Assembly: GCF_000981785.2 (NCBI RefSeq) | Contig: NZ_CP011304.1 | Location: forward strand, 2,400,001 to 2,432,000 | Length of the DNA: 32,000 bases | Source of the DNA: Microcystis aeruginosa NIES-2549 | GTDB lineage: Bacteria > Cyanobacteriota > Cyanobacteriia > Cyanobacteriales > Microcystaceae | Direction: 5' to 3' | In this document: positions 4,113-22,464 of the stretch, piece after piece | Layout of the letters: each line of letters starts with the position of its first letter | Numbering within the stretch: position 1 is the stretch's first letter | The notes under the pieces: model-generated | The model's database searches: none | What the model saw: only the letters and a program-made list of their open reading frames with translations | Told to the model about the DNA's origin: nothing | Position numbers and translations under genes: made by a program

Positions 4113-5204
4113 ATGTCTCGTCCTGTTGTTTATTTTGCCGTTACTAATCATGGTTTTGGCCATGCCGTCCGCAGTGCTTCGGTAGTAGCTAATATTATTG
4201 AACTTAATCCCGAAATTTTGCCGATATTAGTCACCACGGCCCCGCGCTGGTTATTAGATTCCTATATATCTGGAGAATATATTCAAAGACATCGGGGGTT
4301 TGATGTGGGGGTAATCCAATCGGATAGTTTAACGATGGATAAATTAGCTACTAAAGAAAAACTAGAACAAATAATTGCTCAATCAAGGTCAATTATTGCC
4401 AGTGAAGTTAATTTTATTAAAACTAATCGTGTGGGTTTAGTTGTGGCCGATTTACCCCCTTTAGCGGCACTAATTGCCAAAAGTGCGGGGATTCCTTGTT
4501 GGATGATCGGTAACTTCGGCTGGGATTTTATCTATCGTGATTGGGGTGAAGAATTTGCCAGTATTAGTGATTGGATTAGTCGTTGTTATAATCAATGTGA
4601 TCGCTTATTTAAACTGCCTTTAGCAGAAGCGATGACAGCATTTCCTCACGTTACAGAAGCAAATTTAACTGGGGGGACACCCCGCTACAGTGAAGAACAA
4701 TTGCGACAGGAGTTTAAGCTAAATGCCCCTAAAGAAAAAACTATTTTATTGAGTTTTGGTGGGTTAGGATTAGAAGCAATTCCCTATAATAACCTCGCCA
4801 GTTTTCCCGATTGGCAATTTATCACTTTTGAAAAAAACGCGCCCGAATTGCCCAATTTAATCCGCCTAGAGGATAAACCAGAGCGGAGCTATCGTCCCGT
4901 GGATTTTATGCCCCTGTGCGATCGAATTATTTCCAAACCGGGATATAGTACCTTTGCCGAGGCTTTAAAATTAGAGGTGCCGATTGTTTCCCTAATGCGA
5001 GAAGGTTTCGCCGAATCAGCGATTTTATTGGCTGGAATCCAAGATTATAGTTATCATCAAATTATTAGCAGTGAAGAATTTTTTCAAGGTAATTGGGACT
5101 TTTTACGCCAAGCTCCCCAACCGCCACGATTAAAGGTTAAACTGGCTAAAGATGGTGCAGAATCGATAGCGAGAGCTATCGTAGAATACTTTGAGAGGCA
5201 ATAA
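4113..5204 (+). CDS. glycosyltransferase-like protein (GT-B/MurG-like fold, function unknown)
   Basis: 363-aa ORF. The N-terminal VYFAVTNHGFGHAVRS motif and the C-terminal SKPGYSTFAEAL resemble GT28/UDP-glycosyltransferase-type enzymes. Assigned by recollection of motifs only. Confidence 0.55.
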   Translation: MSRPVVYFAVTNHGFGHAVRSASVVANIIELNPEILPILVTTAPRWLLDSYISGEYIQRHRGFDVGVIQSDSLTMDKLATKEKLEQIIAQSRSIIASEVNFIKTNRVGLVVADLPPLAALIAKSAGIPCWMIGNFGWDFIYRDWGEEFASISDWISRCYNQCDRLFKLPLAEAMTAFPHVTEANLTGGTPRYSEEQLRQEFKLNAPKEKTILLSFGGLGLEAIPYNNLASFPDWQFITFEKNAPELPNLIRLEDKPERSYRPVDFMPLCDRIISKPGYSTFAEALKLEVPIVSLMREGFAESAILLAGIQDYSYHQIISSEEFFQGNWDFLRQAPQPPRLKVKLAKDGAESIARAIVEYFERQ

Positions 5205-5324
5205 CCATCCGGGGAAAGTTGACAGCCAACCTGAGCAGAGAACCAGGGAGACAGAAACAAGATCGGGCAGCAAGCCGATACTTGTTACAATAGTTTACAA
5301 ATCACCCTGCCCCGTCACTGAACT

Positions 5325-7316
5325 ATGTCCGAACAGATGATCTCCCCAGAGACGCAAACCCCAGAAGCGATTACTGTTGAAGTGCAGCCCGTCCATATTC
5401 CCGAAGAGCATCGGGAAGATACCGGCCCCATGGATGACAACGTAGCCGAGAGTTGGCGCTACAATCCCCAAGTTATTAACGACTATTACCGTCGGCGACC
5501 TCTAGAAGTTTTGGGGAGATTAATCGAAATTGCCCTGCCAGTTTTATCTTTTGTCATCGGTATCTGGTGGGATAAACTGCGGGGAAAATCGCCGAAAAAT
5601 GAAATTAGACGGGCCGTACAATTGCGGGAAATTTTGACCAAATTGGGACCGACCTATATTAAGATCGGTCAAGCTCTCTCTACCCGGCCTGATTTAGTAC
5701 CACCTTTATATTTAGAAGAATTAACCACTCTCCAAGATCAAATTCCCTCTTTTCCTAACGAAATTGCCTATCGTTTTATCGAAGAAGAATTAGGTTATTG
5801 TCCCGAAGAAATTTATGCAGAATTATCCCCCAATCCCATAGCGGCCGCTTCCCTAGGACAAGTTTATAAAGGTAAATTAAAAACCGGAGAGAGAGTCGCC
5901 GTTAAAGTACAGCGTCCCGATTTGATTCGCTGTATAACTTTAGATGTGTATATCATGCGTAGTTTGGCGAGTTGGGCGAAAGGTAATATTAAAAGACTTC
6001 GCTCCGATTTAGTGGCAATTACCGACGAATTAGCTGGTCGTATTTTTGAAGAAATTAATTATCTTCACGAGGGACAAAACGCCGAAAAATTCGCTCAACT
6101 TTATGGTCACATTGCCGAAATTTACATCCCCAAAATCTACTGGAAATATACCGGGCGACGGGTTTTAACCATGGAGTGGGTGGACGGCACAAAATTAACT
6201 AATATCAAAGAAATTCAGGCCCAGGGTATTGATGCCACCCACTTAGTTAATGTGGGGGTGCAGTGTTCTTTGCGTCAATTACTTGAACATGGATTTTTCC
6301 ATGCGGATCCCCATCCGGGTAATTTATTAGCGACCCCCGACGGTAAATTAGCTTATCTTGATTTCGGCATGATGAGCAATATTGAACCCTATCAACGCTA
6401 CGGTTTAATCGAAGCGGTGGTGCATTTAGTCAACCGGGATTTTGAGTCTTTGGCCAAGGATTACGTTAAGTTAGACTTCCTGTCACCAACTACCAATTTA
6501 GAGCCAATTGTTCCCGCTTTTTCGGAAGTTTTCGGTAATGCTTTGGGGGCGAGTGTGGCAGAATTAAACTTTAAAAGTATCACCGATAAAATGTCGGCGA
6601 TGATGTACGAGTTTCCCTTTCGAGTCCCTGCCTATTATGCCCTGATTATTCGCTCCATGGTGACTTTAGAGGGAATAGCGATTGGCATCGATCCTAATTT
6701 TAAGGTACTGAGTAAAGCCTATCCTTATATTGCTAAACGTCTGCTCACCGATCCTTCCACGGAGTTGCGCGATTCCCTGCGAGATTTATTGTTTAAAGAC
6801 GGTACTTTTCGCTGGAATCGTTTAGAAAATCTCCTGCGAAATGCTAAAGATTCTAATGATTTTAACTTCGAGAAAGTCACCGATCAAGCGTTAGATTTTC
6901 TCCTTTCAGACAGGGGTATATTTATCCGAGAAAAATTAGTTAATGAGTTAGTCAATGCGCTCGATAACTTCGGTCGTCGCACTTGGTTTAATCTCACGGT
7001 TAATTTCCGGGAACAGGTGGGTTTAACTGTGCAGGAAACTCCCCCAGAATTGTTAGGTGATGCTAAGAGTTTTGAGCATCTTCGCAACATCTTTACTATT
7101 TTACAAGAAACAAAAGGATTCGATGCCATGGCTATGGTGCCAGTGATGACTAAACTAATCGTTAAACCGGAAACTCAACAGATGGGACAAAAAATTGCTG
7201 AAGGTTTGCTACAAAAATCCCTAGCGCGTTTAATTCGTTACTTAGTTCTCGAATTTGATAGACCAAATCATCAGCAAAATGGAGAATTATCGAAAGCTTT
7301 ACCCGCTGCCGATTAA
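5325..7316 (+). CDS. ABC1/AarF/UbiB-family atypical kinase
   Basis: AAASLGQVYKGKL, VAVKVQRP and FFHADPHPGNL motifs; 663 aa. Confidence 0.9.
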   Translation: MSEQMISPETQTPEAITVEVQPVHIPEEHREDTGPMDDNVAESWRYNPQVINDYYRRRPLEVLGRLIEIALPVLSFVIGIWWDKLRGKSPKNEIRRAVQLREILTKLGPTYIKIGQALSTRPDLVPPLYLEELTTLQDQIPSFPNEIAYRFIEEELGYCPEEIYAELSPNPIAAASLGQVYKGKLKTGERVAVKVQRPDLIRCITLDVYIMRSLASWAKGNIKRLRSDLVAITDELAGRIFEEINYLHEGQNAEKFAQLYGHIAEIYIPKIYWKYTGRRVLTMEWVDGTKLTNIKEIQAQGIDATHLVNVGVQCSLRQLLEHGFFHADPHPGNLLATPDGKLAYLDFGMMSNIEPYQRYGLIEAVVHLVNRDFESLAKDYVKLDFLSPTTNLEPIVPAFSEVFGNALGASVAELNFKSITDKMSAMMYEFPFRVPAYYALIIRSMVTLEGIAIGIDPNFKVLSKAYPYIAKRLLTDPSTELRDSLRDLLFKDGTFRWNRLENLLRNAKDSNDFNFEKVTDQALDFLLSDRGIFIREKLVNELVNALDNFGRRTWFNLTVNFREQVGLTVQETPPELLGDAKSFEHLRNIFTILQETKGFDAMAMVPVMTKLIVKPETQQMGQKIAEGLLQKSLARLIRYLVLEFDRPNHQQNGELSKALPAAD

Positions 7317-7336
7317 CCTCTGTTCGGTCAATAAAT

Positions 7337-7358
7337 GCCGTGAAATAAATTTCACGGC
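7337..7358 (+). terminator. palindromic hairpin downstream of the ABC1 kinase gene
   Basis: gccgtgaaat aa atttcacggc is a near-perfect palindrome 21 nt after the stop. No T-tract follows, so terminator function is uncertain. Confidence 0.3.
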
Positions 7359-7400
7359 TACGAGAAGAACGCTAAACTGTTTTTAAAGTTTTGGCTCTTC

Positions 7401-7540
7401 TAGGTTCTGTGTGATAAGTTTAACTTACAATATGATCGATCAATCTTTGTGTCCTTTGTGTCTTTGTGGTTCGTTCCACTCACTCGCCAGCAGGACTGTA
7501 TCCTAGAATACATTTTACCCACCAAACCTGGGAGAGCCAA
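7401..7540 (+). repeat. dispersed ~140-bp element, copy 1 (MITE-like)
   Basis: taggttctgtgtgataagtttaacttacaatatgatcgat...ctttgtgtcctttgtgtctttgtggttc...gaatacattttacccaccaaacc aligns along its length with the reverse complement of 17084-17219. Confidence 0.8.
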
Positions 7541-7559
7541 GTTTTTTTATCCTAACTGG

Positions 7560-8864
7560 TTAACGGGGTTTAAAGGTGACTTGTAAACCGTCCCGGGGGT
7601 GGGGAGTGGGGATAGAGGTGAGGGTGAGATCTTGATTAGGGAGTAATTGCCAATCGTATTTTTCTACTAAACGGACGGCTAAAATTTTCATCTCTAAACG
7701 AGCGAATTCTTTGCCGATACATTCGCGCAATCCCGCACCAAAGGGGATATATCCGTAGGGTTTTTCCTCGGCTAAAAAGCGATCGGGATCAAAGGTTTCA
7801 GGATGGGAATAAATGTTATTATCTTTATGGGTATTGCTGATTTGATACTGAACTATCCATCCTTTCGGTAAATGATAACCGTTAAATTGACAGTCTTCTA
7901 TTACCCGACGGAATCCTCCTCCCACGGGTGGAGTAAAACGTAAAACTTCTTTTAAAACGCGATCTAAATAGGTCATCTGTTTGAGGGTATCGACGCTTAA
8001 AGGAGTGGATAGATCAAAATTAGTTATTTCCTCCAAGACAAGCTGAAAAATATCGGGATGCAGTGCCATTTGTAGGCAGAAGGTGGCGATAGCGGAGGTT
8101 AAAGTTTCATGACCAGCAAAGAGTAATAATAGCACTTGATCCTTTAATTCCACTAAGGATAAACTTTGACCGTTTTCATCTTTAGCTTGTAAAAGGATAG
8201 CCAGAGCATCCTGGCCTAAGTCATCATTTTTTTGTCTTTCTAAAATGATAGTTTCTATGGCTTCTAGTAATTCTTCTCGACAGCGTAATGCTTTGCCGAA
8301 AGCTGTCCAGGGAAGGGGAATGGGAAGGGTAAATAGTCCCGCACACCAAGTATCAAAAGCTTCTCCTAATTTGGTAGCAGAACCCTGGTCAAGACCGACA
8401 AATAATTTACAGGCGATATCGAGGGTATAGTTTCTCAATTCAGGATACCATGACAGGGTTTTTGCGGTTTGCCAACGCTCTAAATAGCGAGCGGTAATTG
8501 TTTCTACCGTAGGGATATAACTTGCTAGGGACCGGGGTTGAAAAGCTTGATAGATTAAGCGACGACGGGAAGCATGGACATCTCCCGTATGCACCGCTAA
8601 AGATGCGCTGCCGAGGAGAGTTTTGGTACTTTTGGGCCAAGTTGCCGCAAAGTATTTATTCTCATTGCTGAGGAGAAACCGGTTAGCTTCGGCACCGGAT
8701 AAAATTATCGTGGGACTGCCAAAAATATGAGTACGGAAAAGTTGACCATATTTATTATGACGTTTGTTGGCAAAATCCCCATCGGTCAAAAAAGCGATTG
8801 TTTCTCCTAATAGGGGTAATCCGAAACTGCCGGGGGGTAGGGGTAAATCTTTGCTTATAGTCAT
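7560..8864 (-). CDS. cytochrome P450 (CYP120-like)
   Basis: Heme-binding loop FGAGLRECIGKEFA (FxxGxRxCxG) and I-helix FAGHETLTS. The likely start is MTISKDLPLPPGSFGLPLLGE at 8864; the track start at 8891 adds 9 aa. Confidence 0.9.
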   Translation of the reverse strand: MTISKDLPLPPGSFGLPLLGETIAFLTDGDFANKRHNKYGQLFRTHIFGSPTIILSGAEANRFLLSNENKYFAATWPKSTKTLLGSASLAVHTGDVHASRRRLIYQAFQPRSLASYIPTVETITARYLERWQTAKTLSWYPELRNYTLDIACKLFVGLDQGSATKLGEAFDTWCAGLFTLPIPLPWTAFGKALRCREELLEAIETIILERQKNDDLGQDALAILLQAKDENGQSLSLVELKDQVLLLLFAGHETLTSAIATFCLQMALHPDIFQLVLEEITNFDLSTPLSVDTLKQMTYLDRVLKEVLRFTPPVGGGFRRVIEDCQFNGYHLPKGWIVQYQISNTHKDNNIYSHPETFDPDRFLAEEKPYGYIPFGAGLRECIGKEFARLEMKILAVRLVEKYDWQLLPNQDLTLTSIPTPHPRDGLQVTFKPR

Positions 8865-9077
8865 CGCTGCCTCTAGGGTAAAACTAATCATTTGCCGTCG
8901 ATTAACCCTGTTTATTCTAACCTAAAGCACCGGAGAATTCATCCCCTAATCTAGCCTGACAATTAGCGATCGCACTTGGCAACGGTAAGCACCTAAGCAA
9001 AGTTAATTACACATCTCACCAGTCAGTCAACAGTGATAATTGCCGCCAATTGACATTTTTTAAGATCACCGCCATAA

Positions 9078-10292
9078 TTAGCCTTTGCTAATAATAATTC
9101 GCGGCAAACGATGCTTAAACCCGCAGAGAATTTCCCAGGATATTGTACCTAAATCCCGCGCCCAATCGTCGGCGGTGATGCACTGCGGGCCATCTTTACC
9201 GATAAGGGTGACGATTTCCCCTGTTTTTACCTCTGGAATCTCGCTCACGTCAATCATTAACTGATCCATGGTTATCGCGCCGATTTGGGGTACTAAACGT
9301 CCTCTCAGGGATACTTTTAAACGATTGGAGAGATTGCGGGGAATTCCATCGGCGTAACCGATACCGACCACAGCAATACGGGTGTCTTTTGCCGCTATGT
9401 ACTGATGACCATAACTCACTCCCGAGCCGGCGGCAATGGTTTTGACTTGGGCAATGCGCGCTTTTACTTGCAGGACGGGTTGCAAAGGGACTTTATCGGT
9501 GAGATGATCGGCGGGATAAAGACCGTAGAGAGCTAATCCCACTCTAACTCGATCGTAGTGCAGAGATCGATCGCTTAGGGTAGCGGCAGAGTTGGCTAAA
9601 TGCAGACAGGGGGGATGATAACCTTTTGATCTTAACTCAGCGATCGCTTGTTGGAATCTTTGCCGTTGTAACTGCATGATCTCGGGGTTGGGATCGTCAG
9701 CCGTGGCAAAATGCGAGTATATACTGGCAATTTTCAGGTTAGGAGCCTCTAAAACCTGTTCGACGAATTTGGTGCCGTTTTGCCATTGTGTACCTAAGCG
9801 AGACATCCCCGTATCTAGTTTGATATGGACGGGCAGCCGCTGCTCTAAGCGTCTCATAACGGTGGCAAAAATTTGTACCTGTTCGATTTGCACCAGGGTG
9901 GGTTGCAATTGCCAATGGGCTAAGGCTGCCACTTCTTCCGGGGTATTGACTGCCCCTAAAATCATAATTGGGGCAACGATTCCCGCTTCGCGTAGTTCGA
10001 TACCTTCCCCGATAGTCGCGATGGCTAAAGATTGCGCCCCGGCTTCTAAAACGCTGTTAGCCACCTTAACTGCCCCGTGTCCGTAAGCATCAGCTTTAAT
10101 TACCGCCATTAATTCCGTTTTTGGGGCTAACAGGGCCTTGACTTTTCGCACGTTTTGTTGTAAGGCAGAGCGATCGATCTCTACCCAAGCACGATAGCGA
10201 ATTACTTCCGACAATTGATAATCATGACGGTTTTTGGGCGGATTGATAATTTTTGGTTCGATGCTAAACACCACTCGCTCACTCCTTTGCAC
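9078..10292 (-). CDS. alr: alanine racemase
   Basis: PLP-lysine motif AVIKADAYGHGA and a C-terminal ISWEILC...RLPR region. The start codon in the track is GTG, so the exact start is uncertain. Confidence 0.88.
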   Translation of the reverse strand: MQRSERVVFSIEPKIINPPKNRHDYQLSEVIRYRAWVEIDRSALQQNVRKVKALLAPKTELMAVIKADAYGHGAVKVANSVLEAGAQSLAIATIGEGIELREAGIVAPIMILGAVNTPEEVAALAHWQLQPTLVQIEQVQIFATVMRRLEQRLPVHIKLDTGMSRLGTQWQNGTKFVEQVLEAPNLKIASIYSHFATADDPNPEIMQLQRQRFQQAIAELRSKGYHPPCLHLANSAATLSDRSLHYDRVRVGLALYGLYPADHLTDKVPLQPVLQVKARIAQVKTIAAGSGVSYGHQYIAAKDTRIAVVGIGYADGIPRNLSNRLKVSLRGRLVPQIGAITMDQLMIDVSEIPEVKTGEIVTLIGKDGPQCITADDWARDLGTISWEILCGFKHRLPRIIISKG

Positions 10293-10618
10293 ACATAACC
10301 CAATTTATACCAAAAGAAAACCGAGAGGGCTAGGAAAGAAGCCTGAAACTCCTCTGGATTTCCTCCTTTTTCCAGGCGGAATCTAGGCTTTAAGATGAAT
10401 GGGATATTAGGAAGTTCCCGAAAAAATTGGCAGTTAGGGTTTTTTCCTAGAGAATGAACAGTAACGGGTAATCAGTGACAAGAAAGTAGGGAAATTTTCA
10501 CCTAACACTATCTCAGTGGTTGGACAGAAGTGAAGTTAACTGTGGGGTAAGGAATGCCAAAAAGCCTAGACTTAAGATAAAATCATATCCAACTGGATGT
10601 AGTATAGGAGTTTACCAA

Positions 10619-13404: not shown

Positions 13405-14247
13405 TAATCCCATAATAAGTCTAAACTATGATTGAAATGATTGAATGAATACTATGATTGTGTTGTATTCAGCAAACCTTCATCAATGATCAATTATAGT
13501 CCATCCCATAATTCCATAATAAGTCTAAACTATGATTGAAATGATTGAATGAATACTATGATTGTGTTGTATTCAGCAAACCTTCATCAATGATCAATTA
13601 TAGTCCATCCCATAATTCCATAATAAGTCTAAACTATGATTGAAATGATTGAATGAATACTATGATTGTGTTGTATTCAGCAAACCTTCATCAATGATCA
13701 ATTATAGTCCATCCCATAATTCCATAATAAGTCTAAACTATGATTGAAATGATTGAATGAATACTATGATTGTGTTGTATTCAGCAAGTCTTCATCAATG
13801 ATCAGTTATAGTCCATCCCATAATTCCATAATAAGTCTAAACTATGATTGAAATGATTGAATGAATACTATGATTGTGTTGTATTCAGCAAACCTTCATC
13901 AATGATCAATTATAGTCCATCCCATAATTCCATAATAAGTCTAAACTATGATTGAAATGATTGAATGAATACTATGATTGTGTTGTATTCAGCAAGTCTT
14001 CATCAATGATCAATTATAGTCCATCCCATAATCCCATAATAAGTCTAAACTATGATTGAAATGATTGAATGAATACTATGATTGTGTTGTATTCAGCAAA
14101 CCTTCATCAATGATCAATTATAGTCCATCCCATAATTCCATAATAAGTCTAAACTATGATTGAAATGATTGAATGAATACTATGATTAGGTTGTATTCAG
14201 CAAGTCTTCATCAATGATCAATTATAGTCCATCCCATAATTCCATAA
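13405..14247. repeat. tandem array, 104-bp unit x ~8.1 copies
   Basis: The anchor cataataagtctaaactatg recurs at 13411, 13515, 13619, 13723, 13827, 13931, 14035 and 14139, an exact 104-bp period. No ORF of 60 aa or more exists in any frame. Confidence 0.97.
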
Positions 14248-14254
14248 ATCACAG

Positions 14255-14692
14255 TTAAGACGATGGATGTTGCTGTTGTCGCAGCGTTTGTAAGTTTTCC
14301 CGAATATTAACAGTAGTAGGATGATTCTCCCCTAAAGCTTGCTCTGCAATTGCTAAAGCTTGTAAATAGAGTGGTTCTGCTTCTTCGTATTTTCCTTGAG
14401 AATCGTATAATTTTGCTAAACCATTGAGGGAAGATGATACATCGGGATGCTTGTCACCTAATAGTTGTTTCCTCAATTCTAATGCTTGTAAAAAGAGGGT
14501 TTCTGCTTCTTCGTACCTTCCCTGAGATTGGTAGAGTTTTGCTAAATTATTAAGATTTTCAGTGATATTGGGATAGTTATCGCCTTCAAAAATTTCTGGA
14601 CAGTATTTTTTTTGATTTGCCAGAAATTCCTGTGAGGTAACTTCAGTAAAATATTGGTGGATAATATTGCGAAATTCTTTAGGATCTAGCAT
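14255..14692 (-). CDS. TPR-repeat protein (KLC-type TPR_10/12 repeats), 145 aa
   Basis: NLNNLAKLYQSQGRYEEAE and SLNGLAKLYDSQGKYEEAEPLYLQAL repeats. The C-terminus is paralogous to that of 15238..15732. Confidence 0.75.
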   Translation of the reverse strand: MLDPKEFRNIIHQYFTEVTSQEFLANQKKYCPEIFEGDNYPNITENLNNLAKLYQSQGRYEEAETLFLQALELRKQLLGDKHPDVSSSLNGLAKLYDSQGKYEEAEPLYLQALAIAEQALGENHPTTVNIRENLQTLRQQQHPSS

Positions 14693-14708: not shown

Positions 14709-14966
14709 CTATTTAATTAACTCTTCATACTCATCATGAGAACCAATCCAAAACCAGTAATAATCTTCACCTTTTTTCAATGCTAAAGCTCTATAATTCT
14801 CAGTTATTCGGACTGACTAGACATTTTTCCCTACTTTCTTGAAATGTAATGATCGATGGAAAACATTACTAATCCAGAGACGATAGGCTTTTTTTGCCTG
14901 TTGCTTAATGTAGGGAGGTAAGTTGGCATAACATTGCCAAAAATCAGGAGTTGTTAAGGATTTCAT
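14709..14966 (-). pseudogene. RelE/ParE-superfamily toxin with an in-frame TAG at codon 50
   Basis: My minus-strand translation reads MKSLTTPDFWQCYANLPPYIKQQAKKAYRLWISNVFHRSLHFKKVGKNV*SVRITENYRALALKKGEDYYWFWIGSHDEYEELIK. The stop is at 14817-14819, and the start overlaps the antitoxin 3' end by 23 nt. Confidence 0.7.
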
Positions 14967-15165
14967 CTAAAGGCTTAACTTGATTGTTACTGATATCATT
15001 GTTGACTTTTTGTAATAGTCGATCGAGTTTCCCTGATTCGAGATCGTTTTTTATCTGTTTGTCCCAACTATCATCAAGATAGTCTTGTAACCAAGCTGAT
15101 AATTGATGGATTTCTTCGTCAGGCAACTGGAGAATCGCGGATTCAATATCTTTGAGTGTAGTCAT
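14944..15165 (-). CDS. putative antitoxin partner (73 aa, acidic helical protein)
   Basis: It lies immediately upstream of, and overlaps, the toxin reading frame. The size and acidic composition are typical. The family was not recognised. Confidence 0.55.
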   Translation of the reverse strand: MTTLKDIESAILQLPDEEIHQLSAWLQDYLDDSWDKQIKNDLESGKLDRLLQKVNNDISNNQVKPLDEILNNS

Positions 15166-15237: not shown

Positions 15238-15732
15238 CTACGGGAGCGACTCTAAGTTTTCCCGAATCTTAACAGTATTAGGATGATTCTCCCCTAAAGC
15301 TTGCTCGGCAATTGCTAATGCTTGTAAAAAGAGGGGTTCTGCTTCTAAGTATCTTCCTTGAGAATAGTACAATAATGCTAAATTGTTGAGGGATTGTGCC
15401 ACATCGGGATGATTGTCTCCTAAGAGTCGTTTTCTCAAATCTAATGCTTCTAGATAGAGAGGTTCCGCTTCTGAGTATCTGCATTGGGAACGGTACAATG
15501 CTGCTAAATTGTTGAGGGAAAGTGCCACATAGGGATGATTGTCTCTGAAGAGTCGTTTATACAAATCTAATGCTTCTAGATAGAGAGGTTCCGCTTCTGT
15601 GTACCTGCCTTGGGAACGGTACAATGCTGCTAAATTGTTGAGGGAAGTAGCAAAATCGGGATGTTCTTCTCCTAAGCGGCGGCGAGTTACTTCTAGACAT
15701 TGCTCATACCAAGGTTCAGCTTTTTCGTACAA
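15238..15732 (-). CDS. TPR segment of a split NB-ARC/TPR STAND gene
   Basis: Four KLC-type repeats (SLNNLAALYRSQGRYTEAEPLYLEALDL...). There is no ATG: the frame opens at a TTG two codons after a TAA and overlaps the NB-ARC frame by 40 nt. Confidence 0.75.
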   Translation of the reverse strand: MYEKAEPWYEQCLEVTRRRLGEEHPDFATSLNNLAALYRSQGRYTEAEPLYLEALDLYKRLFRDNHPYVALSLNNLAALYRSQCRYSEAEPLYLEALDLRKRLLGDNHPDVAQSLNNLALLYYSQGRYLEAEPLFLQALAIAEQALGENHPNTVKIRENLESLP

Positions 15733-16616
15733 TCCTTAGCTGCCTCTACCCCTCTTTGCGCCGTCATATCTCCCGAAGGATTCTGCAATGCTGACAACTG
15801 TAAACCCTTATCTATCAACTGCTGCTGCATCGTTGCCAACGTCCAATTAGTACGCCGTTTGAGGAAACGCCCCACCAATTCCAACCCTAAAGGTAAATAC
15901 CCTAGCCACGCACATAGCCCCTTCCCTACCTCTAATTCAGCTTGCAGACGCGACGCACCAATCAGAGATTCCAGTAAAGCAAGGGCGGCTGATTCGCTTA
16001 AAACAGGTAAGCGCAACTGCTCAAACGATGCTGCCAGCCAATTTTGCCGAGTCGTAATCAATACCTTAAAGCGTTGTTCTTGGGGAGGCAAATAATCTTG
16101 GATTTCCTCATACTGATGCACATCATCTAAAATTAGCAGTACATCCCCCGGCGGTTGCCATCTCGCCCAACAATAATCCAATTGCCCCCGCAAATTCAAA
16201 TCTTCCGGGGGAAACAAACCCAACAGCGACTTAGCAAAATCTAATAGTTGTACCCCCACCGTTCCCCCTTGCACCCCTATCCAACAAATACCGCCGGGAT
16301 AAGTCGATTTTTTCTTATGATATAGCGCATACTGGAGGGCTAATTCTGTTTTACCCACTCCTACCATTCCCGTAACGACGGCGGTAATCGCAATTCTTTC
16401 TTGTTGCTGTAACTGGTGGTGCAGTTGTACCATTGCATCTTCACGCCCCACGAAATTAACGGCCCCAGTACGCGCTCGATTGAGATTATTCGGCGATTCT
16501 GCTGGTTTTTCCGCTTGGGGAGTTTGAGGAGGATTGATAATTTGGTCGCCCTGTACAACTCCAGCAACTCCATAGGCTGCGTTGAAGTTTTGCTCAATCT
16601 TGGACTCTTCTGCCAT
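15693..16616 (-). CDS. NB-ARC (AP-ATPase/STAND) P-loop NTPase segment
   Basis: Walker A GMVGVGKTELA, Walker B VLLILDDV, KVLITTR, and the GLPL-type motif GYLPLGLELVG. The preferred start is MAEESKIEQNF at 16616, with GGAG 12-15 nt upstream. The frame ends prematurely before the TPRs. Confidence 0.85.
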   Translation of the reverse strand: MAEESKIEQNFNAAYGVAGVVQGDQIINPPQTPQAEKPAESPNNLNRARTGAVNFVGREDAMVQLHHQLQQQERIAITAVVTGMVGVGKTELALQYALYHKKKSTYPGGICWIGVQGGTVGVQLLDFAKSLLGLFPPEDLNLRGQLDYCWARWQPPGDVLLILDDVHQYEEIQDYLPPQEQRFKVLITTRQNWLAASFEQLRLPVLSESAALALLESLIGASRLQAELEVGKGLCAWLGYLPLGLELVGRFLKRRTNWTLATMQQQLIDKGLQLSALQNPSGDMTAQRGVEAAKDCTKKLNLGMSNV

Positions 16617-16671
16617 TGCTCGGATATCTCCTTTGCCACATTGTAGGATGAGTTCGTAACCCATCCCAATA

Positions 16672-17016
16672 TCACTCTGCTGTTTTCCAACCTTCAATTA
16701 AAGCCATTGTTACATTGAGGTAAGGATTATCTAGAAATTCCTCAAGGGCAGCTTTTCCCCCTGATGTCACCGCGCCTAGCAATCGCTTTCTGACAGGAGT
16801 TGACACCGCCGCATTGATGTAAGCTTCCTTTTGTTTTTCCGTCGCAGTGGGATTTGTCTCTTCCAGTTGTTTGAGCAATCGCTGAATTTCTGCGGCAGCT
16901 TCGGCTAAATCTTGCTTCTGAGAAGAGGGGTAGATAATTTGGTCTCCGGCAACTTTTCCGGCTACTCCGTAAACGGCTGCATTAAAGTTCTGTTGTACTT
17001 CTGGTGAATCAGGCAT
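16672..17016 (-). CDS. small helical protein sharing its N-terminal module with the NB-ARC gene (114 aa)
   Basis: MPDSPEVQQNFNAAVYGVAGKVAGDQIIYP parallels MAEESKIEQNFNAAYGVAGVVQGDQIINPP in the next gene. The rest is predicted to be all-helical (LAEAAAEIQRLLKQLEETNP...ALIEGWKTAE). Confidence 0.65.
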   Translation of the reverse strand: MPDSPEVQQNFNAAVYGVAGKVAGDQIIYPSSQKQDLAEAAAEIQRLLKQLEETNPTATEKQKEAYINAAVSTPVRKRLLGAVTSGGKAALEEFLDNPYLNVTMALIEGWKTAE

Positions 17017-17083: not shown

Positions 17084-17219
17084 TGGCTCTCTTGGATTTG
17101 GTGGGTAAAATGTATTCTGAGATAAATTTCTCCTAGGGAGGGAGTGGAAGGAACCACAAAGACACAGAGGACACAAAGATCGACCATAATGTAAGTTAAA
17201 CTGATCACACAGAACCTAT
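17084..17219 (-). repeat. dispersed ~140-bp element, copy 2 (inverted relative to 7401-7540)
   Basis: The reverse complement aligns with 7401-7540, including ttctgtgtgat(c/a)agtttaacttaca, ctttgtgtcct(c/t)tgtgtctttgtggttc and gaatacattttacccaccaaa. Confidence 0.8.
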
Positions 17220-17242
17220 AAGATTTCGAGAAAAAGCTAAAC

Positions 17243-17824
17243 CTACCAAACCCGGGGCGTAAACTCCGCATCATTTAAAATTATTACATTTTCCCCTGAC
17301 TGCACCAACACAAACAAACCCTGACGACAACCATAACTCGCCACCTCATTGGGAACAATCATCGCTGCCACCGCTCCCAAAGCCTTTACATCTCGAAAAC
17401 GAGGCATTAACCGCTTAAACTTCGCCAAACGTTGTAAATGCTCGTCCACATCCCTTTGAGTTAACTTACTTTTGACCTCCACTAAAATGGCATCCGTATC
17501 ATTTACTACCAATAGATCAATCTCTAAACCCTCATTATCCCGTTTTACCGAAATACCGGGGTGAAACTCATGCACATCAATACCCCGCTCTTGAAAAAGA
17601 CGCACCACCGCAGGACGCACTTGCCACTCGACAAACTCTCCTAAACGATTGCCCAACTCCCCAATCTGCTTACTAACCCTGTTAATTTGCTTATCTGTTT
17701 CCTTGATTTGTTTATCCGTTTCTTTTTGAGCTTGGGATAACTCTTGTTGGGATTGGGATAACTCTTGTTGGGATTGAGCTAATTGCTTTAGTATTGCCCG
17801 AATCTCTTCAATAGTGGCTGTCAT
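17243..17824 (-). CDS. coiled-coil plus PD-(D/E)xK-like (restriction-endonuclease-fold) protein
   Basis: EIDLLVVNDTDAILVEVKSKL fits a D...(D/E)xK core. The N-terminal coiled coil has a heptad duplication, SQSQQEL x2. The likely start is MTATIEEIRAIL at 17824. Confidence 0.6.
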   Translation of the reverse strand: MTATIEEIRAILKQLAQSQQELSQSQQELSQAQKETDKQIKETDKQINRVSKQIGELGNRLGEFVEWQVRPAVVRLFQERGIDVHEFHPGISVKRDNEGLEIDLLVVNDTDAILVEVKSKLTQRDVDEHLQRLAKFKRLMPRFRDVKALGAVAAMIVPNEVASYGCRQGLFVLVQSGENVIILNDAEFTPRVW

Positions 17825-17906
17825 AATGAATTTTCTCAAGTTAAAATGAAATTTTCTCTATTATAGCCCGATCGCTTTTTCTCCCTTGAAGTAACTGTTC
17901 AGGGGG

Positions 17907-18098: not shown

Positions 18099-18424
18099 TA
18101 CAATGAGACTATACGCCTTATGTAAGTTAAAAGCTGGAATGGTGTAAACTCGTTCGATAGATTATCTCTCTAGTCGGAGTGTTGGACTCAAACACTTGAC
18201 CCCTAATTAGGTTGTTTTAGGTCACATCAAGTGTACTACTTTATTAGGTTTCTTACAGGAAATTTTAAAGGTTTGAGCCTTCGGTAAATCTTTCGAGGTA
18301 GCCTAGTTATCATATCTCAAAAATAGCTTGAGCGATTTTTTCAGAGGATTTTCCTAATGTAAAGTAATATCCTCTGAGTGTTTATAATGTTAAAAATTAA
18401 GTGATTTTTACTCATTTCAGTACA

Positions 18425-19957
18425 ATGGCAAAAAATCAAGCCGAATCTATGTCTGATCAGAATCATCAGCAGCCAGATATGGGTGCGAAGAAAACAACGC
18501 AGGCTAGGATAGAAGGTCAGGATAATAATCAAATAAAAACAGGAATTGATCCTAAAATTGATTCGGAAAAACCGTTTAAATATTCGGAGCCAACAGGAAG
18601 ATTAGGGGAGATAATCCTGCGCTTAATGCCGGTGGGTCTTTTGCTCGGAGGACTGAGTTATTGGGCGATAGTTGGCAAGATTCCGACTCCTGTTCAAGGA
18701 CGAGCGGTCATTTTGATTCCTCGTTCTATTGTTAATATCGAACCCCGTCAAGGTGGGCGGGTGTTAACCCTCCTGATTCAACCAGGAGATTCTGTCAAAA
18801 AAGGGCAATTACTGGCAACTTTAGAGTTTCCTGAATTAGAAACAGAATTAAAGGATAAAAAGGATAGGTTAGCAGATCTCAAGCAGCAGGATAAAAGAGT
18901 GGACTCTATTGAAGTGAGTCGTCGCCAATTGAATGCAGCCTCAGTAGATCGCCAGCAAAAGGCCAATCAGCTTCAGATTAAAGCACTTCAAGTTCAATTA
19001 TCCAGTAATCAAAAACAGCGAGAAGCCTATCTCTCCCATGCTCGATACCTTAAAAATTTCCAGAACTCAACGGATGAAAGACTAGCCGCCTACGATAAAC
19101 TTATCGAAGAGGGGGCTGTCGCCAAGCTAGATTTTCCCTCCTATTTGTTTCAGTTCAATAATCTAGAGGCTTCTAATAGTATCAATCGCGTCCAAATAGA
19201 ACTCGATCGCCTGAAGGGGGTTGATGAAAGCCTGCGAGCGCAGATGAACGCATTGACGGCACAGAATAATATACTAAACACAGAAAAACGGCAAATAGAC
19301 CTGCAAGATACAGCCAGTGATATTCTTCGTTACAATGCGATCGCTGACCAGCAACGAGAGATTAATACGTTAAGAACCACTATTCAAGCCAACAAAAATG
19401 TAGTGAGTCTGTACAACGGCCAGATTTTAGACTTATCTGTTAATCCGGGGGAAGTCCTGGCTCCGGGGGGGCGCATAGGTACGTTAGAAGTCTCCAATCT
19501 AAAGGCCAAGACCAACGTGGTGGCATTGTTTAAGAGTGGTGATGCCAAACGATTAGAACCGGGCAAGGAAGTAGAAGTCGTTCCCGATCTCTATGATCGC
19601 GAACGCTATGGGGGTATCGTCGCTAAGGTCGTTTCCGTCGATCAGCAGCCGGTAACTGTGGCAGAACTAGCAAATATAGTCGGAAGTCATGAACTCGCCA
19701 GCAAGCTGTTTCTGGGTAGAGATGAAGACGATCGCGATAAGCCTATACCCGTCAATGCAAGTGTTATCAAAGCCACTTTAGCGCTGAAGGTCGATCGCAA
19801 TACACCCAGTGGTTTTTACTGGACTCAAGCCAAGGGAGCGCCCCAAAGAATTACCAACGGGACTACCGCAGATGTCCATGCTGTGGTAGAAGAGCGTTCT
19901 TTAGTGAGTTATATAACCCCTGCTTTTCGCTGGATTACAGGGGTGTACGATCGTTAA
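18425..19957 (+). CDS. HlyD-family membrane fusion / periplasmic adaptor protein
   Basis: N-terminal TM (LRLMPVGLLLGGLSYWAIV), lipoyl-like IQPGDSVKKGQLLATL, a long coiled coil, and the C-terminal hallmark TNGTTADVHAVVEERSLVSYITP. The first ATG is at 18425. Confidence 0.85.
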   Translation: MAKNQAESMSDQNHQQPDMGAKKTTQARIEGQDNNQIKTGIDPKIDSEKPFKYSEPTGRLGEIILRLMPVGLLLGGLSYWAIVGKIPTPVQGRAVILIPRSIVNIEPRQGGRVLTLLIQPGDSVKKGQLLATLEFPELETELKDKKDRLADLKQQDKRVDSIEVSRRQLNAASVDRQQKANQLQIKALQVQLSSNQKQREAYLSHARYLKNFQNSTDERLAAYDKLIEEGAVAKLDFPSYLFQFNNLEASNSINRVQIELDRLKGVDESLRAQMNALTAQNNILNTEKRQIDLQDTASDILRYNAIADQQREINTLRTTIQANKNVVSLYNGQILDLSVNPGEVLAPGGRIGTLEVSNLKAKTNVVALFKSGDAKRLEPGKEVEVVPDLYDRERYGGIVAKVVSVDQQPVTVAELANIVGSHELASKLFLGRDEDDRDKPIPVNASVIKATLALKVDRNTPSGFYWTQAKGAPQRITNGTTADVHAVVEERSLVSYITPAFRWITGVYDR

Positions 19958-20021
19958 CCACAATCTTGCGAGCGTAAGTAGCTGAAAGAAACAACGACTA
20001 GAATAAACGGTTAAACCTAAT

Positions 20022-20198
20022 ATGGAAAATCCGAAAAGACGTTCTCAATGGTGGACTTGGTGGTTTAAGTGGTGGATTATCGCCGCAGCGTTTGTCTTAG
20101 TAATCTTGATCCATAGTGAGCCTCCTCAGCTTTGGTTTTGGTTGGTGACGTTTTTGGCACTAATTTTATATGGGATTGAGCGAGCGATTAATGGGTAA
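20022..20198 (+). CDS. 58-aa Trp-rich two-TM membrane peptide (AaeX/DUF1656-like position), absent from the ORF track
   Basis: My translation reads MENPKRRSQWWTWWFKWWIIAAAFVLVILIHSEPPQLWFWLVTFLALILYGIERAING. It sits between the adaptor and pump genes. Confidence 0.5.
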   Translation: MENPKRRSQWWTWWFKWWIIAAAFVLVILIHSEPPQLWFWLVTFLALILYGIERAING

Positions 20199-20232
20199 CA
20201 ATGAGTAAGCCGAAAAAGGATATAGAGATACC

Positions 20233-22464
20233 TTGGACAGTAAAAACGGGCTAATAATCAGACAGGGATTGAAGTTTTCCCTGGGTGCTGCTCTCTTAAC
20301 GAGTTTCTTTTGGCACCGAGGAAATGTATTAGACAACTTTGTCTATCCCGTCTTTGGGTATGTCTCTGTACTGATTGAGCCATCGATGGGAGGTGCGATT
20401 GCGGCAGGTTTGGGGCGTTTGGGGGGAAGTGCTTTGGGGGGAATCATTGCCGCTATCCTGGTGAACGCCTACGGAATCCAAGGCTCAAGTTTTTTTGTCA
20501 TTCCCTCTCTCACCTACATTTTAGCCGCCCTGATCTGTGAAACTTACCGATGGCAAGCCGCTTATTCCCAAGCCACACTACTGGGCGCTTTAATTGCCAT
20601 GAGAGTGGTAGGAACATCAGCACAACAAGATATCTGGCTCTATTTGCGGTCGCGCCTGATCGATAACTGGATCGGAATCGCTGTGGGAATTGCTGTGGCC
20701 TTACTATTTTGGCCCCAGAATACTCGATCCGATCTCAACCGGAACTTGATGGGAATCCTTCAAGATATACCGCGCTTGTTCCAAAAAATCCTCGATCGCC
20801 ACTTAAAAACTGAGGTCGAGGAGCGGGATTATTCTCTTTCTATTGAGCAGAACGAGCTTAACTTACTCAATCAGATTAAAAAATCAACACAAACTAGCCT
20901 TTCAACACTCACAAAAGCAACCCATGAATTCGGTAGTGAGATATTGGTGGCAGAAAATTGGAGTGAAATCTTGGCAATTCAGAACCAATTGACTCGACAA
21001 TTAGCTGATCTGATGGCTTTTAAGGGCGAAAAGCATGAACAAAATTTAGTGGGTCAGTTCAGGGCGGAATTTTACCAATTGGCGACTCATCTTACCGACA
21101 GCTTTGATAGCTTGAGGGATCTGAGTAACGGCAAAAAAATCTTAGCTACCCCTTACCTGACAGAATTAGAAGAAGATTTAGCGAATATTGGGGGTAAACT
21201 TGATCATCTCCGAACAAGTGGAGAGATTGACCGGTATGATGTTCAAGAATCACTACAGTTTTATCAATTTATTCAACTTGTATCTCGATTTATCCAACAA
21301 TGCGAGGGATTAGGAGGCAGGATAATCGATAAAACCAAAGTAACTGCAACTTTCAGGCGAAGACACCTGATTACCTTTCCCAAATGGGCCCCTATATCCC
21401 TAAAACGCCTGAGAGAAATTGTCAGTCTTGGCCTGGTTATTGGTTTGTTACTGGCTATTATTCGTCACATCGAGTTTCCCTATCCTTCTGCTTACGAAAA
21501 AGTGGCAGATATTGTGATCATAGGTGCAGTGGTCACTGTGATTCAACCGACAAGGGGGCGAGCGATCGCGATCGGTTGGGCGGCAACTGTTTCGTTGAGT
21601 TTGACGATTCTCTGTATTTACCTGTTGGTCAAGTCCTTTGGTTATAATCCTTTTAGTAGCAGTCTGGCTTATTTTTTCGCCTACTTCAGTTGTGCTTGGC
21701 TGGGGTTTACGCCAATCGCTCGCATCGGTGCGATTGTAGCAGCCGATGCCATCGGGAAGGATATTTTTCCTTTTTTCGAGCAAGGAATTTGGTCCGCACT
21801 GATTTCAGTTCCCGTAGGTGCGTTTCTGGGGGTGTTGCTGACCACTGTATTTATGACAAAATCGGCTACAAACCAACTGGAAACAGATTTTTCTGTGACT
21901 TTTAAGAAAATGGGACAGCTATATCAAAAACTGCTGTCAGGCTATTTTCAGGATACGATACCACCGTCAGATATCGCCCAACTGAAGCAGGCCATCACAG
22001 TGGCGATCGCTCAACATCCAGCCTCGGTTAAGATTGCCAGTCTCGAACAAATTTCCACAGTTTTAGCAACCAAACACCAAAATTTTTGGAATTTCTCCAT
22101 CGGCTACGAACAAAAACTCTCGGCTCAACTGGATGCTTTACAAGATGTGCTACAGCAACCGCTTCCTGAACCGATACGACAAAAGTTTTTACCTGAATTA
22201 CAAGCGATCGCACAACAGACCGCGATCGCTTTTGATGAAATGGCTGATGCGATCGCTGCCCAGGTAATTCTCAACCCACCAAAGTTAGGATTGCTCATCG
22301 AAGAAATTGAATCTCTTGAGAAGCAATTACTGAGCTTGCGGGTTGAGAGTCGAAGTTATCCCTTAAATGAGCTAATCGCCTTTAGCTCGGCTTTTATGAC
22401 GATGAAAGCCATTGCCAGCAACTTAAATCAAATGAGTCAAGACTTACCTGCCTACACCCAATAG
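20233..22464 (+). CDS. FUSC / aromatic acid exporter (ArAE) family membrane protein
   Basis: 743 aa with two hydrophobic multi-TM blocks, each followed by a long helical cytoplasmic region, as in AaeB/FusC. The start in the track is TTG. Confidence 0.8.
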   Translation: MDSKNGLIIRQGLKFSLGAALLTSFFWHRGNVLDNFVYPVFGYVSVLIEPSMGGAIAAGLGRLGGSALGGIIAAILVNAYGIQGSSFFVIPSLTYILAALICETYRWQAAYSQATLLGALIAMRVVGTSAQQDIWLYLRSRLIDNWIGIAVGIAVALLFWPQNTRSDLNRNLMGILQDIPRLFQKILDRHLKTEVEERDYSLSIEQNELNLLNQIKKSTQTSLSTLTKATHEFGSEILVAENWSEILAIQNQLTRQLADLMAFKGEKHEQNLVGQFRAEFYQLATHLTDSFDSLRDLSNGKKILATPYLTELEEDLANIGGKLDHLRTSGEIDRYDVQESLQFYQFIQLVSRFIQQCEGLGGRIIDKTKVTATFRRRHLITFPKWAPISLKRLREIVSLGLVIGLLLAIIRHIEFPYPSAYEKVADIVIIGAVVTVIQPTRGRAIAIGWAATVSLSLTILCIYLLVKSFGYNPFSSSLAYFFAYFSCAWLGFTPIARIGAIVAADAIGKDIFPFFEQGIWSALISVPVGAFLGVLLTTVFMTKSATNQLETDFSVTFKKMGQLYQKLLSGYFQDTIPPSDIAQLKQAITVAIAQHPASVKIASLEQISTVLATKHQNFWNFSIGYEQKLSAQLDALQDVLQQPLPEPIRQKFLPELQAIAQQTAIAFDEMADAIAAQVILNPPKLGLLIEEIESLEKQLLSLRVESRSYPLNELIAFSSAFMTMKAIASNLNQMSQDLPAYTQ

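Follow-up and report, generated by a model that had tools for sequence, protein, structure and literature searches.

Organization of the locus

The window examined here is a stretch of 32,000 nt from Microcystis aeruginosa NIES-2549 (contig NZ_CP011304.1, positions 2,400,001 to 2,432,000), and the features of interest, above all a pair of adjacent, collinear genes that open with the same short peptide motif, lie on its minus strand. The first gene is an open reading frame (ORF) of 114 aa at 16672-17016. Its N-terminal motif, termed type A below and having the core QQNFNAAVYGVAGKVAGDQIIY, occupies 16927..17016 and is followed by a C-terminal domain of ~82 aa (16675..16926), in which AlphaFold2 (AF2) predicts four helices and which is closed by the stop codon at 16672-16674; this domain is referred to as HD. 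The second gene starts with an ATG at 16616, leaving a gap of 55 nt after the stop of the small gene, and encodes an NB-ARC protein of the NOD-like receptor (NLR) kind with a stop at 15693. It begins with its own copy of the type A motif (16527..16616) and continues into the NB-ARC domain (15801..16442, residues 60-273 of the translated ORF), which matches Pfam PF00931 with an E value of 4.8e-15 and contains the Walker A sequence GMVGVGKT together with LLILDDV and KVLITTR. An array of about 3.5 KLC-type tetratricopeptide repeats (TPRs) remains at 15238..15732, in a frame that differs from that of NB-ARC; this ORF matches Pfam TPR_12 (E 1.4e-69) and TPR_10 and has a period of 126 in Tandem Repeats Finder. 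The assignment of the second gene to the NB-ARC and KLC-type TPR families, made in an initial annotation of the window, is borne out by these matches. The best protein match (P0002, 97% identity) is annotated as Microcystis, and the region is flanked by chromosomal housekeeping genes encoding MnmE, alanine racemase and a P450. A scan for promoters and terminators returned counts equal to the shuffle expectation, which says nothing on operon structure.

The shared N-terminal motif

Aligned by Smith-Waterman over their full lengths, the small protein (N-terminus MPDSPEVQQNFNAAVYGVAGKVAGDQIIY) and the NB-ARC protein (N-terminus MAEESKIEQNFNAAYGVAGVVQGDQIIN) score 95, as against a mean of 31 and a maximum of 58 in 2000 shuffles, and the motifs by themselves reach 89, where the highest of 5000 shuffles was 48. 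Both copies contain the identical 12-mer GACCAAATTATC (gataatttggtc on the plus strand), and they are the only two copies in the window. The initial annotation had reported two consecutive minus-strand genes with a common opening module and a shared 12-mer, and had taken the module to be homologous and not a product of low complexity; all of this agrees with both ORFs as found here and with scores that lie far above those of the shuffles.

Among the 21 aligned codons of the two motifs in the window, nine are identical, eight differ only synonymously and four encode residue changes. The corresponding counts in Microcystis sp. T1-4 (locus L001) are seven, ten and five. Synonymous-only differences thus outnumber replacements, so the peptide has been conserved in both genes while the DNA has drifted, and the codon pattern indicates that the shared motif is not the product of a recent duplication or a conversion tract. 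The repeat-rich and rearranged character of the region in Microcystis might suggest that the similarity is due to chance, or that a 5' leader was recently duplicated or gene-converted to no functional effect. This explanation is refuted by the alignment score, by the synonymous divergence with a conserved peptide, and by the recurrence of the motif arrangement in further genera and alongside NTPases of different classes, and its probability is negligible. The small gene itself shows a nonsynonymous divergence (pN) of ~0.25-0.34 from homologs in other genera, compared to a saturated synonymous divergence (pS) of ~0.8. Judged by these rates, the small ORF is a real gene under purifying selection.

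The motif is a short G/N/Q-rich segment of ~25 aa with no predicted fold; AF2 assigns residues 1-28 a predicted local distance difference test score (pLDDT) below 50. It has no match among the Pfam families of effector-associated domains (EADs) at E values up to 1. The type A motif also stands ahead of HD in L001-L008, L048, L081, L083 and L085. A padded profile of the motif, run against a set of 5.8 billion proteins, retrieved no more than 13 short fragments, most of them truncated alleles from Microcystis, and so provides no census of its carriers.

Decay of the receptor gene and its intact alleles

By comparison with its relatives, the NB-ARC/TPR gene of the window is a pseudogene. Direct comparison and blastn against L001 reveal that 460 nt (L001 7328-7787) are absent from the window at ~15737/15738, which shifts the frame. 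The junction fuses RGVEAA, in the wrong frame, to the GLYE(K/Q)AEPW repeat region, where translation would meet a stop after 15 codons, at 15693-15695; the junction and its out-of-frame tail span 15693..15740. Intact alleles, sought in related strains as the initial annotation had proposed, are present in Microcystis sp. T1-4 (L001) and LSC13-02 (L003) as an ORF of 907 codons (880 aa from the ATG) comprising the motif, NB-ARC and 9-10 TPR_12/TPR_10 units. In these two alleles the P-loop NB-ARC domain runs in frame into the repeat array, an arrangement that the window lacks. In both strains, the gene just ahead of the receptor encodes the same motif with HD directly behind it. The intact NLR scores 372 bits against the NCBIfam model FxSxx_TPR. 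The contraction of the array in the window, from 9-10 units to ~3.5 repeats, may reflect assembly collapse; the frameshifting junction sits in unique sequence and not in the repeats.

Other Microcystis assemblies contain more truncated or rearranged alleles of both genes, and on the basis of these alleles the locus is a rearrangement hot spot. Five Microcystis-like proteins from metagenomes and genomes (P0074, P0220, P0222, P0225 and P0221) are alleles of the small gene or of the NLR N-terminus; just past the motif (…GDQII|…) they break off or have an internal deletion, with unrelated sequence beyond. The linker that follows the motif is also variable in length: the T1-4 NLR has a (GDKVL/GDKII)x3 mini-repeat just past the motif (L001 6401-6530; …GDQIIGDKVLGDKVLGDKIIQL…), which the window allele at 16527-16616 (…GDQIINPPQT…) is without.

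The HD domain

The AF2 model of the small protein, based on an alignment of 66 sequences, places the four HD helices at residues 31-54, 60-70, 73-92 and 97-113 with pLDDT values of 75-89. The domain is acidic and soluble-looking and has no evident hydrophobic helix. Searches against Pfam, NCBIfam, PADLOC and PDB sequences gave no significant match to HD, and all structural matches in the Foldseek PDB and BFVD searches had E values above 0.4, the best in the PDB being 1.1; marginal Foldseek rows naming saposin, MIT and death-domain folds had probabilities of ≤0.2. No description of HD or of a motif-then-domain topology was found in the searchable literature.

HD is a large and essentially cyanobacterial family, with 308 loci in GTDB species-representative genomes. 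Clustering at 50% identity gives 1416 clusters at E ≤1e-3, 911 of which are found at E ≤1e-10, and the domain is 45-60% identical across cyanobacterial orders. A phage origin was considered and rejected, only one locus having been found in 2.9 million viral contigs.

The detailed counts given below refer to 80 HD loci that were fetched with their neighbors within 6 kb; the position of HD within its proteins was taken from the 150 best representatives, and the Pfam census of partner domains covers 122 of 143 representatives. The HD match nearly always ends at the last residues of the protein. Stand-alone proteins of 110-125 aa are a minority, the HD-bearing ORFs of the 80 loci having a median length of 286 aa and a maximum of 1352 aa. 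The proposal that the helical domain is a stand-alone partner is mostly not borne out: in most genomes, HD is instead the C-terminal tail of large proteins. Pentapeptide-repeat proteins, often with transmembrane (TM) segments, precede it in 42 of the 122 representatives. The other N-terminal partners include AbiTii, caspase/CHAT, HEAT, GUN4, vWA, Band-7 and NACHT-like P-loop modules, as well as many regions with no Pfam match. This repertoire, with its CHAT/caspase, AbiTii, Band_7, pentapeptide, GUN4, vWA and NACHT domains, is that of the conflict systems of multicellular bacteria.

Motif types and cognate NTPases

HD is usually directly preceded by a segment of 25-45 aa that belongs to one of at least eight recurring, mutually unrelated types. 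These are type A (QQNFNxxVYGVAGxVEGNQ), type B (NNDLRGANIGNFANxVxDNARQQ), type C (PKYDMRGxxFxGGFAETVxGNQ), type D (KYDQRxxxxFVDTAQSGSRQQ), type E (GDTYNIGQAGAVGKYARSDNN), type F (SSFDGNFIQGEGNQIGDK), type G (GDRxINMGSGNYNERIxGDYxQGN) and type H (YNFHGSVGSVANQG...). Compared to the regions upstream of it, the pre-HD segment is enriched in N (x2.29), G (x2.00) and Q (x1.84) and depleted in L (x0.20), P (x0.59) and K (x0.65), as well as in R.

In 15 of the 80 loci, another ORF within the 6-kb neighborhood has the same motif at a score above the shuffle maximum; a sixteenth flagged locus, L038, proved to be an antisense artefact. The neighbor is a P-loop NTPase with the cognate motif at or near its N-terminus in 10 of the 80 loci (one of these not checked against Pfam). 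These NTPases are NB-ARC/TPR proteins in three Microcystis loci, NACHT proteins in L009 and L011, NACHT+GUN4+FGE proteins in L015 and L016, a NACHT+NA-iREase1 protein in L013, an AAA_35 protein in L070 and, in L014, a P-loop ORF that runs off the end of its contig. A matrix of motif scores for nine loci and four motif types, which took in NB-ARC, NACHT, NACHT+NA-iREase1 and AAA_35 NTPases, is block-diagonal: cognate pairs score 82-128, while cross-type pairs mostly score 20-40 and never more than 59. None of the neighboring NTPases contains HD; they carry the motif only.

The closest stand-alone homologs of the small protein, at L081/L082, L083 and L085, were added to the set of 80. The L085 small protein lies with an NB-ARC protein (motif score 125), both copies containing FTG(S/P)VYGVAGNVEGDQII. 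At L081/L082 the partner is an iSTAND protein (score 96, with IKTAYG in both copies), next to which comes a MoxR-like AAA gene, and at L083 it is a pentapeptide/TM protein whose motif lies internally (score 86). The coupling of an effector-less STAND NTPase to a small neighbor through the module, as initially annotated, is thus a recurrent arrangement, seen in three Microcystis loci, in L085 with NB-ARC and in L081/L082 with iSTAND. The L081 locus (5071-10392) is laid out with the type A HD protein directly upstream of the iSTAND protein with its cognate motif, then the MoxR-like AAA gene and a gene for an 834-aa protein. It resembles the iSTAND ternary system of Kaur et al., with a short motif where an EAD would be expected.

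The motifs extend beyond NTPases. The same types occur at the C-termini of pentapeptide proteins in L015 and L070. In L020, L040, L054, L059 and L063, DUF6232 membrane proteins end in a motif like that of the next small motif-HD gene, with scores of 45-58, some of them marginal; by these scores, a DUF6232-motif protein and a motif-HD protein form a recurrent second kind of pair.

That HD forms the very C-terminus of a wide variety of proteins, and that most of its loci have no motif-sharing neighbor, could mean that the motif and HD together are a C-terminal sorting, localization or degradation tag, and that the similarity to the NLR reflects nothing but co-targeting to the same scaffold. Against this, the NTPases have the motif only and never HD. 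HD stays constant behind differing motif types, and the types match between neighbors, which suggests that the pairing specificity lies in the motif and not in a common tag; some carriers, such as CHAT and NACHT-like proteins, are also cytoplasmic enzymes. A tag is a lesser rival and a very improbable one.

Relationship to known motif-coupled systems

The closest described counterparts of the window pair are the Bell/BASS-NLR gene pairs that Dyrka et al. (2020; bioRxiv 10.1101/2020.01.06.895854; J Mol Biol 432:6005) reported from multicellular bacteria, in which BASS denotes a bacterial amyloid signaling sequence. As in those pairs, the genes are adjacent and collinear, and an NB-ARC/TPR or NACHT receptor has an N-terminal motif of ~25 aa that is repeated on a small neighbor. 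The motifs are likewise rich in N, Q and G and poor in K, P and L, they fall into many orthogonal families, and their distribution is cyanobacterial and includes Microcystis. The pre-HD composition agrees with most of the reported BASS bias (Q, N, G, V and I up; K, P and L down). Prion and fibril assays of BASS motifs provide an experimental precedent for the motif logic.

The two systems differ in topology and, it appears, in the partner domain. BASS follows Bell at the C-terminus; here the motif comprises residues 1-29 and the domain residues 31-113, and the same order is found in all HD proteins. Bell is a HeLo-like bundle with a conserved hydrophobic N-terminal helix, and HD is probably a different domain: it has no Pfam match, no Foldseek PDB match with E <1 and no evident hydrophobic helix. 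Unlike the BASS motifs, those described here also front iSTAND and AAA_35 NTPases. The strings YGVA, GVAG, QNFN, EGDQ, NARQQ, GGFAE, SGSRQQ, GAVGK, GNYNE and NFIQG, which represent six motif types within A-G, including A, do not occur in Table S2 of Dyrka et al. by a substring test, which is not a profile comparison; the only matches there, to GDQII (in a BASS1 from Streptomyces) and to AGNV (in a pair from an archaeon), are unrelated.

Abortive infection has been demonstrated experimentally for one bacterial pair, Bab/Agp (BASS11) of E. coli ECOR25, by Ibarlosa et al. (2024; bioRxiv 10.1101/2024.11.07.622273), and that preprint adds TIR, CHAT and EAD7 to the carriers of C-terminal motifs. Bab/Agp is also a two-gene cassette, and in it the N-terminal motif of the sensor templates the motif of the partner; it proves by experiment that pairs of this kind work in antiphage defense. 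Its effector, Bab, differs from HD in being of the Bell-like, membrane-targeting kind and in having its motif at the C-terminus. The fungal HET-S/NWD2 pair and the HRAM, sigma and PP pairs are similar in that the N-terminal motif of the NLR matches the motif of the adjacent effector, and an amyloid fold is proposed to switch the neighboring helical domain. Their HeLo/HeLL effector lies N-terminal to the motif, has a membrane-inserting N-terminal helix and bears no sequence relation to the proteins described here. NLR-effector amyloid signaling is established in fungi and, in bacteria, has been demonstrated experimentally only with Bell-type effectors; in a 2026 review, bacterial BASS are still described from two places only, behind Bell-like domains at the C-terminus and at the N-terminus of NLRs.

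The systems built on EAD1-11 (Kaur et al. 2020 eLife e52696; 2021 e70394) share with the loci described here an element found both on a core NTPase and on a neighboring gene, and the same associated domains: pentapeptide, caspase/CHAT, Band7, GUN4 and iSTAND-MoxR. EADs are small folded domains; here the shared part is short and unstructured, and the folded HD is not shared. The EAD/Death-like adaptor proposed initially for this locus is therefore retained as a logic of coupling and dropped as a shared folded domain. Since the shared element is short, rich in G, N and Q and without a predicted fold, the BASS paradigm fits it better than an EAD or Death-like one.

The adaptor logic could also survive in miniature, as a homotypic peptide through which the NTPase and its partner pair stoichiometrically by a beta-strand or beta-hairpin, with no templated polymerization. 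The EAD-like pattern, in which the core NTPase and the adjacent gene have a copy each, would agree with such a peptide, as would a hint that adjacent copies are the closest, and in the MoxR-type system the motif fronts the iSTAND protein, the usual place of an EAD. A segment of ~25 aa with no predicted fold, whose composition is typical of beta-arch and amyloid motifs, speaks against it, as do the lack of a Pfam EAD match and the description of all EADs as small globular domains. We regard this second of the lesser rivals as quite unlikely.

A proposed BASS-type model for the motif-HD cassettes

With moderate confidence, we read the window locus as a degraded version of an NLR cassette whose two genes are coupled by a motif, of the kind described as amyloid signaling of the BASS type. 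The genomic signature is the one used by Dyrka et al., namely the motif, its placement, the orthogonal types and the cognate matching, and the Bab/Agp experiments are a precedent for its logic. In an intact cassette, ligand sensing by the TPR array would lead to oligomerization of NB-ARC, which would gather the N-terminal motifs; once clustered, these could form a templating beta (amyloid-like) assembly that recruits and converts the identical motif of the small protein. The motif abuts helix 1 of HD, and its assembly could cluster or refold HD as an output-side module. The motif would thus serve as an address code, with at least eight interchangeable types ahead of HD and the cognate type on the motif-bearing neighboring NTPases. 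Under this model the assembly would be of cross-beta nature, the signal would pass from receptor to HD as the effector, and the system would have a role in defense or cell death.

The role of HD is the weakest step of the BASS-type reading. Its high conservation suggests an output or regulatory function and not pathogen sensing, and its acidic, non-hydrophobic character and lack of a fold match argue against a pore former of the Bell/HeLo type. We suggest only tentatively, and with considerable doubt, that HD is a new, cyanobacteria-specific, amyloid-switched output or regulatory domain, acting as the hub of a network with at least eight orthogonal motif types of ~25 aa and motif-then-domain topology, which wires together NB-ARC, NACHT, iSTAND-MoxR, AAA_35, pentapeptide/TM, CHAT, AbiTii and Band-7 proteins. 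The principle would be a known one, the new elements being the motif family, the large partner-domain family, the reversed topology and the extension to iSTAND and AAA_35 NTPases.

Several observations weigh against the BASS-type reading. HD has no evident resemblance to the pore formers of Bell/HeLo type, and the partner topology, with the motif N-terminal to the domain, is reversed with respect to every described BASS pair. The pre-HD segment is without the enrichment in V and I that is known from BASS (V x1.10, I x0.78). No motif-sharing neighbor was found within 6 kb in 64 of the 80 HD loci, and most HD proteins are large and multidomain, so HD may act independently of NLRs; a universal HD-NLR linkage was rejected given these 64 loci and the mere ten with a cognate-motif P-loop NTPase. 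Within type A, the cognate copy is the best match or is tied, by only 0-3 of 23 positions, which amounts to a marginal preference. The DUF6232-motif and motif-HD pairs occur with no motif-bearing NTPase. In the window itself, the receptor is broken by the 460-nt frameshifting deletion, and the cassette is probably non-functional there as a result.

A serious rival, though an unlikely one, is that HD proteins are brakes or caps. The acidic, folded HD would keep the motif soluble, and the stand-alone motif-HD protein would cap or poison NLR-nucleated assemblies in a safety or antitoxin-like role, the real outputs being membrane proteins or enzymes with the same motif (DUF6232, CHAT, pentapeptide/TM). 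HD has neither enzymatic nor membrane features, and its strong conservation across orders is what would be expected of a structural or regulatory module. Clusters often have several motif carriers, with and without HD (L015, L070, L009 and the DUF6232 pairs), and the small gene remains intact and conserved where the NLR has decayed. The cassettes of Microcystis, L085 and L081 point the other way: there, the motif-HD protein is the sole motif-bearing partner found near an effector-less NTPase, and a brake with no output makes little sense unless the effectors are unlinked.

If the BASS-type reading of HD and its motifs is true, it brings to this form of signaling new motif families, a reversed architecture and a large undescribed partner domain, which hundreds of cyanobacterial species have and which forms ~1,400 clusters at 50% identity. 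It would also extend the motif code from NB-ARC and NACHT to two more STAND classes, iSTAND and AAA_35, and offer a testable entry into regulated cell death and defense in bloom-forming and filamentous cyanobacteria. The biological weight of the window's own copy is lower because its receptor gene has decayed.

Neighboring genes and repeats

A gene at 17243..17824 on the minus strand matches Pfam DUF3782 at 33 bits and, marginally, PDDEXK_10 at 21.5 bits (cut-off 21.2). The PD-(D/E)xK-like gene of the initial annotation thus lies directly upstream of the pair as described, with a marginal family match, and does not hold as a conserved member of the system: it was rejected as a third component because it is absent from the neighborhoods of L081, L083 and L085. 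T1-4 has three tandem copies (L001 3558-6000) compared to the one in the window (17097-17906), and the window gene contains 2.7 copies of a 21-nt unit (17721-17776) that encodes SQSQQEL repeats. On the opposite strand beside the island, at 18401-22461 (plus), lie genes for an HlyD-type membrane-fusion protein and a FUSC/ALMT-like transporter, with no evident link to the gene pair.

Two small overlapping minus-strand ORFs of 73 aa and 49 aa lie between the NLR and a TPR remnant (14817-15165) in an arrangement like that of toxin-antitoxin genes; they have no match in a Pfam search and are kept in L001. The remnant, a stand-alone ORF of 145 aa at 14255-14692 (minus), has only two to three KLC-type TPRs, and its DNA is 84-87% identical to the tail of the NLR gene, so that it looks like a remnant or duplicate of the NLR 3' end. 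A non-coding, AT-rich tandem array at 13405-14247 consists of 8.1 copies of a 104-nt unit with 97% matches. It is not CRISPR-like because it is without spacers, and the syntenic Microcystis loci L001 and L003 have the same 104-nt unit at their ends.

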